Shown here piece after piece: positions 782 to 40,424 of a stretch of 64,000 nucleotides of DNA. Each line of letters starts with the position of its first letter. Position 1 is the stretch's first letter. A model generated the notes under the pieces. It saw nothing but the letters and a program-made list of their open reading frames with translations. It was not told the origin of the DNA and searched no databases. A program made the translations under genes and the position numbers. Source of the DNA: Phoronis australis (Eukaryota > Animalia > Phoronida); assembly GCA_002633005.1 (NCBI GenBank), contig NMRA01000310.1:66624-130623 (forward strand), in the 5' to 3' direction.

Positions 782-799
782 CCCTTGCCATCCTTAGTC
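782..799 (-). CDS. Cav2: IIIS3-S4 microexon 3 (18 nt), (S)TKDGK(G)
   Basis: gatattacag|GACTAAGGATGGCAAGGG|gtaagt. Confidence 0.7.
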
Positions 800-1127
800 C
801 TGTAATATCAACCATAGCAATCAAAATGTGGTCTACTATAAGACGACAACAACCTCGTATTACTCCGCCTCCACCACTACTGCACCACTACCACAAAGAA
901 ACCACTACCCACACCCAAAGTAGCACCGTGTACCAAGTACAGAAACTATTTGTCTTTAAATGGCGTGTGAATTTTGGACTGGATTTGGAATCATGGGATA
1001 TATCAGTAAAGAGTATACACCATCTCAAATTATAGCACATGAAAAACCCAGTGAAATGATAGGTGACAGCAACAAACCAATGAAATGATCTCATACTAAG
1101 ACATGGTGGTCACTCTGCATGTCTTAC

Positions 1128-1145
1128 CGCACAACTTCAGGATCA
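1128..1145 (-). CDS. Cav2: IIIS3-S4 microexon 2 (18 nt), (S)DPEVV(R)
   Basis: Long pyrimidine tract, then ctttgtatttcag|TGATCCTGAAGTTGTGCG|gtaaga. Confidence 0.7.
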
Positions 1146-1592
1146 CTGAAATACAAAGTGCGCCAATGGTTAAAACGGGGAAAAGTGAAAAGGAGGCTTA
1201 AAAGAAACGGAGTAGACAGAAACGGAATTGTGCAGAACGCAAGAGCAGCTGTTTATGAAGCCTGTATTTAATTTTTCATAGTGGTACAAAATGTTTTTAA
1301 TTAACTCACCTGATACATTTACGCTATGTAAAATGACTGGAGTACCCATTGATAGGTAATGGGTAATGGTTATTAGTAAGTGTGGCATTTTGTCAATGAA
1401 TGTCAGCCACGTGCATGGAATTTTGGCCGTCAAGCGGTCAGTCATTAAAACGAACGTCACGTGTCTCTGCACGAGCAGAATGCCAAGTAACCCTCAGCCT
1501 ACTGCGTTACCCTTTATTTGTTTATCTACCAATAGAGCAAGAAACAAGCTCACGTGCGGCAAAACTGTCATAATCTACACACAACATAATAG

Positions 1593-1697
1593 GCAACAGT
1601 CACTTACAGGGGTCCTGCATTTTGAGGACGTTTTCTCTACTGAAAAATGGCCATCGAACTGCTTCTTAAAGTCTGGGATCCCTGTAAGTAACTATGC
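1593..1697. mobile_element. Palindromic MITE-like repeat, family with ttttgagaaccagttt core
   Basis: Arms agtcacttacaggggtcc and ggatccctgtaagtaact. Related copies at 2641-2738, ~34430-34525, ~36220-36310 and ~38510-38600. Confidence 0.6.
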
Positions 1698-2640
1698 AGA
1701 CATATGGATGTCAGGCTTAATTGCCTTGTGTGCAGTGTTAAAATGCCATGTTGGGTATTAAGATGTAGCACAGAGCTGATGGAACAGGCGCATTTGACCG
1801 GATGTATCACAATTGGAATAAAGTTCTTAGTACACAGTCAAAGATTTATAATGTTTCCGGATTTCACTTTGAGGCCTCTCTCAAACTAATAATGACGTAA
1901 GAGGCTGGGACCTGTGATGTTATCCCGACACATTTCCAGATGTCCGTCAGACGTCCCCATGCAGGGCGACATCACACAACCCAAGTCTCTCATGCCATCA
2001 TTACTTTGACAAAGGCCTCAGCGTGAAGGCCGAAAACGTTAACTAGGTACGTAAATCTTTGACTGTGTACTCAGAAGTTTATTCCAATTATGGAGCATGG
2101 AGCACACTGTGTACGCAATATGAGTTAATGGTATTCCATTTCATTGCACGGATTACAAGAGAAGCTCAATGCAAACTATGTGTAGTAGGGATCTGTTCAA
2201 GGCAGGATGAATATCAGGAGTCATTTTGCGTCAAAAACCTTTGCACATTCAAGTATTCAGTTTGTTTGTAGGTCACCTTAACACCCTGGGGTCATTGACG
2301 AGAGTGCAATCCTTTCACATTCTAGTGCTCAATTTATTGTAGTCGCCAAGTCTGGACATTTTTTGTTGACGTAGTCCCGCTCACATTGAAAAGGAGCCTT
2401 TTTAAAAATTAATAATTTATGGACTGCTGAGATGATCTAGTGACAAACAGCAGTAGAACACATCTACTGGAGCAATGACATGAAAAAAAAACGAAAGATC
2501 CTCATCTAAAATGTAAATTCACATTCAATCTAATGCAACTTCATGACATACGGTGAATTTCTTTCGTAAAACATGCTGTGAAAAACGTGTCAGTCGATTT
2601 GCTCAGACAGACATACTGTCTTCACACTGAGGTCACATCA

Positions 2641-37300: not shown

Positions 37301-37947
37301 CTTCCTGTGAGGTTGCCAAGGGCATTTATATCCTGCTTTCATGTTCTGAGTTTCCAAGCATGGAAACTATCTTTTCATATTTTCCAGGTTTGTCCTGGCA
37401 AGTGGGAGTGTGAAATTTTGACAAACACTGGAACCTGTGCGATTATTTTTTGTGAATAAATTACCCTACTTTGCAAAACAAACCTGAATACTGAACTGAT
37501 AGCAATATAACAGGAAAATCAAGAAAATAACTGATTATCATTTAAAATTAAGACCTCTACAGTCAACACATTCACAAAAGCCCCCTTTATACCATGTTAA
37601 AAGTTTTGGAGAGTGTCGGTTTGTATAAATTGTCGGTCTTCGATACAAATAGAGATCAAGGGTTAATTTTGCAATAAATTGATGAATTTAAGAGCGAGGC
37701 ATTTATGCTTCAATTTTAATATGAAAGTTTATCGGTATTATCAGCAAGAGTTGCTGCCAATAACATAACGAGTTCTGTAACCTTTTGACCTTTTATTGAA
37801 ATGTTAACCATCTAACATGACTATAAGCACTTCATTTTCCTTATTATCCAAACGTACGCACCACACTTCATATTCAAAAAAATTGTACCCGCATAATGCT
37901 TCGCATCACCAATTTTCGACGAGTTCTACAACCCAAGCAAGAACTCA
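34381..37947. repeat. About 1.78-kb near-identical tandem duplication around a single n (36161); probable assembly or haplotype artefact
   Basis: 34381-36160 matches 36167-37947; identical ORF pairs 35349/37139 and 35385/37175. Confidence 0.88.
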
Positions 37948-38965
37948 CGGTACAATACTTTGGTTCACTTTCGACACCAGCCTTAAAGGTTCCGCTAACT
38001 AGTTGGTTCACACTGATAACCTTCTGGTACAGTTGGTGTGAAAGGGTCTTAAGTGAGTGACAATCACGCGGTAGAGACGGTCTGTATTTCACATGCATAG
38101 GTCTGAGTTAAAGCATAACAACACAATGCATGCTCAATTCGAATGCAATGACATGGTGCGAACACGCGCATAACACAAACAGGTAGAAATATGAGATAAG
38201 AAGGTACAGTAACTCCCAACTTATTTCATATAAAAAATAATTGCCAAAATTGTCATTTTTTCCATTTTTGTTAAACTGATTACTTTACTGCAAACCAAGA
38301 AAAAATTACCAAAAGTTGCTTTACGACATCAACACAGTAAAAAGCATGGTAGCAATGAGACTAAATTTTTCTTAATCTTTATTTTTGTTTAGAAATTTGA
38401 CATAATAGAACTTCACTTGTCTGCCATATTGTATGCTACAAAAGTGAAAAAATACCATAAGATAACTGTGTTCGTCTCAAGTGAGAAATACCATGCAGGG
38501 TAATGCTCAGATACAACGCGCCCGAATTTTGAGAACCAGTTTTATCCACTGAATAACGGGCATCAAACTGGTTCTTAAAATATGGGCGTGTTATATCAGA
38601 ATTTTCAAGAGAATATTCACGACTTTACGCTAACCTGGAAAGCAGAATACAGTGTCATGCAGTAATGAACATGCCGAGGTAAATAATCAAGTCAACAGAG
38701 GCCATACTAAACAGTCGTGCACACATTACAGACAACAGAGGGCGTACTAAACACAGTCGTGTACACACTACAATCCACAGATGCAGCAGACTTACGGTAC
38801 CTTCCACTTAGAATTCAATATCAATTAACATGCAACAAAGGAAATGAATTCAACATTGGTGCACGAAACATGAAGCATCAAACTTTTTTATTGCACATAA
38901 AATGATGTGAACCAATTAGCGGAAGGTACCGCGGCTGTACAGTAAACACATTTAGCAATACATAC

Positions 38966-39072
38966 TTGGGATACCAGATACCAGTTTGAGCGGTCTGAGC
39001 ACGCGCGCTGCTCGAAGTGTCCGTAAATCAAAACTACCCTTTGTACTTGTTTCCGCAAACATAGTAACAAAC
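38966..39072 (-). CDS. Cav2: Cav2 alternative IS4 exon B (107 nt, canonical)
   Basis: [35 protein letters not shown](S); ctctatag| ... |GTATGT. Confidence 0.94.
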
Positions 39073-40332
39073 CTATAGAGGGAGTAAAGACAAAAATCAT
39101 ACAAAAAACAAAAACAGAGGGTGGCGCTACTAACAATGTGCCAGTTTTTGACACAGACGCACACAACTAAAACTTACAATACATTTACAGACGGACACAA
39201 ACAAAACGAACTGCAAGTAATACTGTATTGTCTAAATCAGTAGACATGACCATGAAATGCCCGACTTTATCTTAGCAACATTAGAACAGCATGAATAAAT
39301 TAACATTCTCAAACATGTCTTTGAACAAACAATTGATAAATCCACTAACGACCCGAACACAATCTCCATGTGTCTTCTCTCCCTTAATTAACAATGAATA
39401 AAGTGAAAAAGGAAGATGTTCAGTCCCAGGGGATGTACTTATAGTTTCATGCCATCGTACAGCTGTATGGTAAAAAATTTCACAACGCACAGTCGCACAC
39501 CTGAATTTCAATCAATTTCATTAATAAACGCCAGGCTCAGTTATGCGCACCCGCCCCCAATTTACATTTGAGACTTTCAGGCCAAGACCTTGTTAATATG
39601 TACCGATATATCGCAATCACAAATCTCAGCAACCAAAAACCTCACAGTTCACATGAGCACGTCCCTGTCGTATGCGAATTAATTGTAAGTCGCTTGTGCT
39701 GCAGTCGTCTCCACTTAAAAATTTCAAGCTGAATTTTGCCCTGCTTGCCTTAAAAATGAAAATCAAATTAGACCCCTACTCTGATAAACTCAGTCGCATA
39801 CTTCTTATCACAATAAGATCTGATGTTTGTTTCCAACAAGAACATCAGCAACTTGAGAAAACTCATCCAAGTTTATCGGGCTTCGCCAGCCATGAAATTG
39901 TGAATTTAAAAAATTGGTGCGCACAAGCACTGGTTGTAACAATCTCAAAATTGCGAATGCAAAAATTGCGCATGTAGACACGCATTGCCTGTGACTTGAG
40001 TTGGCAACAGAATAGAATGCTGTCACAGACACTATTATCAGACCGATTTTATGAGAGTAAACGGCCAAATTCAATTTTCTTTTTTAGCCAGTTAGACAGG
40101 CCAGTGAAATATAGCTTTAGATGTAAAATTTAACAGTACATTGTAAAATGTAAATTGAGCCACTGAACGCACAGATCTCAAATAAATTCTCCCACCAGGA
40201 CAATTCTGAACAGAAAGCTGCCACACAACTCACAATCGTACATTGACATTTATATAGGGACACACGGCTCCACCTAGTGGGTAACATTAATCACAAGGTC
40301 AAGGACAGACAAAGACATCATCCCTGACTTAC

Positions 40333-40424
40333 TCTCAAAACCAGTCACTAATTTCAAAGGACGCAACACCCTAATAGCCCTGAATGCCGGCTGTTTAAAT
40401 GCCGGAATAAGAATGGAGAAACAC
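40333..40424 (-). CDS. Cav2: Cav2 alternative IS4 exon A (92 nt, divergent, R1->P)
   Basis: [30 protein letters not shown](S); tttcacag| ... |GTAAGT; phase 2/1, same as exon B. Confidence 0.88.

Follow-up and report, generated by a model that had tools for sequence, protein, structure and literature searches.

The 64,000-nucleotide (nt) stretch of Phoronis australis DNA analysed here (the window; assembly GCA_002633005.1, contig NMRA01000310.1, forward-strand positions 66,624 to 130,623) contains, on its minus strand, the 5' two thirds of a gene that by sequence is a lophotrochozoan Cav2 alpha-1 gene. This gene carries three tandem-duplicated exon pairs, likely mutually exclusive, as well as three short exons (microexons), likely optional. 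The pairs encode the fourth transmembrane segment of domain I (IS4), the turret and P-loop of domain I (DI), and the turret and P1 helix of domain II (DII), and the microexons lie in the linker between the third and fourth segments of domain III (IIIS3-S4). Channels built from different choices are expected to be set apart mainly by their gating, trafficking and blocker binding, and not by ion selectivity, a reading to which we assign a probability of about 0.72. From the interpretation in a first-pass annotation of this locus, three frame-exclusive pairs kept by selection were retained, with those of IS4 and DII being old, whereas a count of 24 isoforms, a Cav3-like permeation switch and novelty of principle were not.

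The assignment to Cav2 was based on the AID exon, whose best matches were Cav2.2, Cav2.1 and Cav2.3, ranking before Cav1, and which stood at 83-93% to annelid, brachiopod and mollusc Cav2. In a tree of 21 proteins, the gene grouped with lophotrochozoan Cav2, outside an annelid pair and the mollusc clade, with a placement beside Lingula that was without resolution; Ridgeia Cav2 was at 74% to it. Using annelid, brachiopod and mollusc Cav2 proteins as tBLASTn queries, every exon from the N-terminus (54148) to IIIS3 (4877) was recovered. Within this body of constitutive exons (4877..54148, minus strand), one spliced joint, 17892/18092, was present in 13 RNA reads from runs bearing the same species label.

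The nine alternative exons proposed earlier were all confirmed at their positions on the minus strand; each is bounded by AG and GT and has an open frame. IS4 is encoded by IS4a (40333..40424, 92 nt) and IS4b (38966..39072, 107 nt; the in-frame donor at 38966 was used for the frame and selection tests), the DI turret by DI-A (31397..31605, 209 nt) and DI-B (30143..30342, 200 nt), and the DII turret by DIIa (16872..16944) and DIIb (16559..16631), of 73 nt each. The members of a pair are homologous neighbours of the same phase, and the frame is kept only when one of them, and not both or neither, is included. All eight one-per-pair combinations were open from IS2 to IIS6, and a stop was reached in each of the 24 tested combinations that included both exons or neither exon of one pair, in agreement with the frame shift on double inclusion claimed for the three pairs (92/107, 209/200 and 73/73 nt). 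The proportions of silent and replacement differences (pS/pN) were 0.73/0.12 for DI (last 36 codons, Fisher p 1.6e-8), 0.72/0.23 for DII (p 1.4e-3) and 0.95/0.32 for IS4 (last 18 codons, p 4.6e-5). Both copies of all three pairs are under purifying selection and, because their members differ mainly at silent sites, the pairs are old, maintained duplicates and not alleles. The description of the exon sets as paralogous stands for the pairs but is weak for the microexons, which share just 6-8 of 18 bases.

IS4b is canonical, comprising the IS3-S4 linker and an IS4 with R1-R4 and K5, and aligns to residues 181-207 of human Cav2.2. IS4a, with 30 codons, has R1 replaced by proline within a QPA motif and ends in TGFE. 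A search with IS4a yielded an exon of this type in 11 of 13 candidates (Dimorphilus plus ten single-exon frames, nine of them distinct, which end at the same exon boundary and read on into the intron), and the type was also present in Mactra, Patella and Bulinus models and in three further long proteins. These homologues are nearly always 30 residues long and lack R1 without exception, and they recur in molluscs, an annelid and an echinoderm-like protein. In a quick tree computed with IS4 cut from the alignment, IS4a- and IS4b-bearing proteins were intermixed, with Shimodaira-Hasegawa-like approximate likelihood ratio (SH-aLRT) values of 99 both for the pairing of Patella (a) and Lottia (b) and for that of P0305 (a) and the brittle star Amphiura (b). 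Such interleaving is more readily explained by a single gene with two exons than by a paralogue. We infer from these alignments an ancient IS4 exon pair, possibly bilaterian. The R1-less IS4a, conserved in distant animals, is on these comparisons the best feature of the locus and had been missed in the first-pass annotation. Two IS4 exons were also seen in a Cav1-like locus (L006, 3065-3610).

A related arrangement is found in Drosophila cacophony, likewise a single invertebrate Cav2, which has a mutually exclusive IS4 exon pair (IS4A/IS4B, exons 5/6) at the same intron positions and in which the choice of IS4 exon affects both the voltage of activation and targeting to the active zone (Bell et al. 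2025, PMC11828482; PMC12370356; here and below, published systems are compared as described in the available parts of the cited papers). Drosophila IS4B is matched by IS4b, whereas insect IS4A retains R1 and has an additional charge (an extra Arg), in contrast to the proline at R1, the other motif and the TGFE end of IS4a; judged by its residues, IS4a is not of the Drosophila IS4A type. The exclusive I-IIA/B pair of Drosophila (PMC11828482) has no counterpart, as no I-II pair was found in the window gene. By analogy with Cav2.1 mutant R192Q, which lies at IS4 R1 and shifts activation negative in human embryonic kidney (HEK) cells (PMC9864995), a negative activation shift is predicted for IS4a channels.

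The two DII exons encode 24 residues each, without cysteines, and correspond to residues 635-658 of human Cav2.2, ending before the filter. Both have a short turret, followed by a Met-rich P1 helix in DIIa and a canonical one in DIIb, and the position equivalent to Cav2.2 Thr643 is occupied by Lys in DIIa and His in DIIb. Two Lingula models of a single gene, within one 90% cluster, carry the two types, DIIa being of the P0009 type and DIIb of the P0121 type, with identities over 24 residues of 16 (a-a) and 18 (b-b) against 13 and 13 for the cross comparisons. Since a matches a and b matches b, the pair predates the split from Lingula. The gastropod and annelid models seen had one DII type each. 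As Thr643 is, with Asp664, a ziconotide contact in Cav2.2 (PMC10761187), altered blocker binding by DII exon choice is plausible by analogy. Model P0121 further contains three IVS1-S2-like segments in series.

The two DI exons each comprise turret, P1, filter glutamate and P2, and three turret cysteines, GPNDGIT and TMEGW are preserved in both. The turret of DI-A extends over 35 residues to GPNDG and has one N-glycosylation sequon, and the shorter turret of DI-B has 32 residues and two sequons. Contact of alpha2delta with extracellular loops I-III (PMC10761187) provides a basis for a possible effect of the DI exons on trafficking. Invertebrate NALCN exons 15a/15b are comparable in that duplicated exons span a selectivity-filter position (PMC4436565), but they change the filter residue, whereas both DI exons keep the glutamate. 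Across the comparisons made, the pair looks lineage-specific: no close relative of either turret was found among 356 of 443 motif proteins (best scores 91/224 and 73/212), and the Atlas clusters for the DI turrets were generic Ion_trans only. In bird protein P0174 the DI loop occurs twice, but as an identical copy in the wrong place, and this case was discarded as an annotation error.

Transcription was assessed in three raw RNA runs (X1-X3) and one contig set, chosen by species label, with 18-19% of each run read. The samples were shallow, at a few fragments per exon, and the 19-kb read mapping was crowded by repeats, with 15 joints listed and 16 more unlisted. DI-B is transcribed: at 60-nt resolution, nine reads of run X3 were confined to this exon, in sense and 99+% alike, three of them only partly aligned. 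Run X4 yielded no matches to the DI exons. Sense intronic reads at 31020-31439 and 31620-31780, on either side of DI-A, were seen in X2 only and represent unspliced or retained RNA; a third DI exon considered at 30748-31395 for this X2 signal was rejected, as the interval has no open homologous frame and the signal is this flanking intronic RNA.

The candidate microexons of the IIIS3-S4 linker, of 18 nt each, are at 2888..2905 (microexon 1, inner codons HQDSA), 1128..1145 (microexon 2, DPEVV) and 782..799 (microexon 3, TKDGK), all on the minus strand. With scan thresholds set post hoc from the three microexons themselves, three candidates of 18 nt were found in 4.9 kb, none in the gene's other 49 kb and three in the 64-kb antisense, corresponding to a chance probability of about 0.006 allowing for 17 possible lengths, or of 0.02 if any multiple of 3 is accepted. 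All eight subsets of the microexons keep the frame, so a choice of one of three is not forced and, being frame-neutral, they allow 1 to 8 states, not 3. They are likely optional cassettes. As the next constitutive exon falls outside the window, further microexons may follow.

The microexons occupy the phase-2 intron after IIIS3, which is the site of exon e24a of vertebrate Cav2.1/2.2 and of exon 27 of Aplysia, and, as in these cases, the linker would be lengthened (PMC10657410, PMC11580629). The optional Aplysia exon (AFDS) has been called an e24a orthologue, conserved in Bilateria (PMC10657410). Both known cases consist of one optional 12-nt exon, in contrast to the three 18-nt candidates of the window, and the triplet is a variation on a known theme. 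A likeness of microexon 1 to molluscan DSAG was dropped, as the Aplysia supplement places ESAG at the start of the next constitutive exon (PMC10657410). Two small hairpin elements with terminal inverted repeats (1598-1690 and 2641-2725) mimic an acceptor plus donor in the microexon intron, with the needed frame not open in either. Alternative exons for the adjacent IIIS3 were noted in a barnacle (three; P0054/P0135/P0136) and in Daphnia (two; P0062/P0063).

Several observations weigh against three exclusive pairs and three optional microexons. No junction into any alternative exon was present among the joints listed, and the DI exons showed no joint or loose end above the display threshold. 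The core of DI-A had no reads in the shallow samples X1-X3, and around this exon only nine reads of run X2 were found, in the flanking introns. The bin spanning DIIa and DIIb had reads in X2 and X3 (0.31 and 0.40) that are not assignable to either exon. A second DI exon was absent from all 22 intron-bearing animal loci spanning IS5-IS6 among 80 fetched, 11 of which a noisy score classed as Cav2-like and several of which are redundant, and no DI duplicate occurred in the isoform sets of 8 protein clusters or 16 arthropod groups; in the latter, no DI or DII variation was present in any of the 16 groups compared, species differences aside. The Aplysia exon table, in its available part, gives single IS4, DI and DII exons (PMC10657410), the Lingula evidence for DII consists of gene models, and outside the window no species was shown to have both IS4a and IS4b. 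Finally, R192Q left voltage dependence unaffected in oocytes (PMC9864995). Given the few-fragment depth and the 18-19% sampling, the absence of DI-A reads carries little weight. With regard to the expectation that the alternates recur in related species, the IS4 and DII types are present elsewhere, and the DI pair was found nowhere else among the comparators. The ages of the clusters differ on the sequences compared, with IS4 probably bilaterian, DII at least common to brachiopods, and the DI pair and microexon triplet apparently lineage-specific.

If only the old IS4 and DII pairs worked, DI-A and some or all microexons would be unused relics or chance splice-site pairs. This would fit the read counts (none for the DI-A core versus nine for DI-B), the failure to find a DI pair in the other loci compared, the lack of a shown homologue for the microexons and their post hoc thresholds, as well as the recent non-functional partial duplications carried by the gene (17925-18000 and 27211-27360). 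However, DI-A and DI-B are near silent saturation (dS about 2.9, dN 0.13) and yet have kept frame, cysteines and motifs; DI-A has the stronger splice sites of the two; read coverage was a few fragments per exon; and chance would hardly place three stop-free exons of equal length, each with a strong donor, where microexons are known to occur. Such relics are regarded as unlikely.

A further alternative, put forward in the first-pass annotation, is that four independent clusters are freely combined into 2x2x2x3 = 24 isoforms, with turret swaps changing Na+/Ca2+ permeation as in snail Cav3. All eight pair combinations are indeed open, and Lymnaea LCav3 exons 12a/12b also are alternative exons over the DII S5-P1 turret that end before the filter (PMC9694082, PMC4436565). 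The lysine of 12a (K1067) is 20 residues before the DII aspartate D1087 (PMC9694082), and DIIa, assuming no indel, has its Thr643-equivalent lysine 21 residues before that aspartate, one place away, with the DIIb histidine at the same position; at position -20, DIIb has Ala, as in 12b. However, residue -20 is Gln in DIIa, and in place of its lysine at -21 the Lingula a-type exon has Pro. Moreover, 12a/12b are 39/50 residues long with 3/5 cysteines and Lys/Ala at -20, whereas the window exons have 24/24 residues, no cysteine and Gln/Ala, and the filter glutamates are the same, so that a permeation switch was not borne out. The count of 24 is unsupported because the microexons are frame-neutral, at a site of optional exons, and no read joins the clusters. 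Free combination with altered permeation is thus considered improbable. An origin of the pairs as artefacts of assembly, from uncollapsed alleles, or as fragments of a different channel gene can be practically dismissed: near-identical tandem stretches do adjoin single Ns at 34376-37947 and 9050-9985, but pair members are at best 73-78% alike in DNA, with silent-site excess and unrelated flanks, and the IS4 and DII members each have orthologous types in other species.

Turning to how one member of each pair would be chosen in the favoured reading, the introns within the pairs measure 1260, 1054 and 240 nt, with AG-free zones of 54-86 nt, and no signal for steric exclusion and no distal branch point was found at the three pairs. 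Exclusive splicing of the Dscam type relies on RNA pairing between docking site and selector. None of six intron pairs beat 12 shuffles in a search for intron-intron RNA pairing over flanks of 200-360 nt. Every constitutive acceptor of the gene outscores those of DI-B, DIIa, DIIb and microexon 1, and regulators acting at weak acceptors may choose between pair members, with double-inclusion transcripts likely removed by nonsense-mediated decay. By default, we assume a regulated choice in which frameshifted products decay. In functional terms, IS4b would be the standard high-voltage form and the R1-less IS4a a rarer form with shifted activation. The DII exons may modify the outer vestibule and P1 packing, and the DI exons the alpha2delta-facing turret and its glycans. 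The microexons could tune the voltage-sensor domain of domain III as does e24a, which moves Cav2.1 V50 from -11.8 to -15.4 mV (about -3.6 mV; PMC11580629).

Elsewhere in the gene, two U12-type introns were found, an AT-AC intron at 53963, before IS1 (branch motif 48639), and a GT-AG intron at 14358, after the IIS6 start (branch motif 14094). At 17925-18000 (minus strand), 79 nt upstream of the real site, the acceptor and first part of the IIS5 exon recur as a 76-nt copy (86%), and the RNA reads use the real acceptor at 17892. A repeat of 57-nt period at 27211-27360 contains the end of the IS6 exon and its donor 2.6 times over, generating decoy donors whose read-through leads to an immediate stop. 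The II-III linker has a candidate 39-nt phase-0 exon at 12270-12308 (minus strand), Lingula-linker-like, with a strong acceptor and a weak donor, which may be optional. The near-identical tandem duplications at 34376-37947 (1.79 kb) and 9050-9985 (0.47 kb), adjoining single Ns, are probably uncollapsed haplotypes. A Pfam scan of ten stray frames gave no match above the cut-off. Two tandem AID-exon matches were observed in each of two Cav2-like animal loci (L051, 5792-7184; L077, 8230-9300).

The principle of one Cav2 diversified by splicing, which had been offered as new, is already known from Aplysia, with eight splice sites including an IIIS3-S4 exon and over 700 calculated isoforms (PMC10657410), and from Drosophila, with two exclusive exon pairs (PMC11828482). 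ApCaV2a1 of Aplysia is likewise a lophotrochozoan Cav2 with many splice sites, but those described in the available part of the source are in linkers, IIIS3-S4, IVS1-S2 and the C-terminus, and none in IS4 or the DI and DII pore exons, unlike the window gene (PMC10657410). Exons that swap the turret are already known for Cav3, and exons that swap the filter for NALCN (PMC4436565). A Cav2 with DI or DII pore exon pairs, or with an R1-less IS4 exon, was not found in the literature searched, which left subscription papers mostly outside. With the window gene, the diversity that splicing gives to Cav2 would reach beyond linkers and IS4 into the outer pore.

Tentatively, and at rather less than even odds, the ancestral bilaterian Cav2 may have had an R1-less second IS4 exon, lost in vertebrates and replaced in arthropods, which would give many invertebrates a lower-threshold Cav2 that has so far gone undescribed. 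To this, the present lineage would have added swappable DI and DII outer-pore exons, so that one gene would yield cell-specific channels, each with its own threshold, alpha2delta coupling and sensitivity to peptide toxins, in the manner of Cav2.1, Cav2.2 and Cav2.3. The R1-less exon seems to have been overlooked in established molluscan and annelid preparations. It provides a natural, selection-kept swap for the effect of removing IS4 R1 on a presynaptic channel, and the pore pairs provide equivalent swaps for the influence of a short DII turret and P1 helix on block and inactivation, and of the DI turret on alpha2delta coupling.

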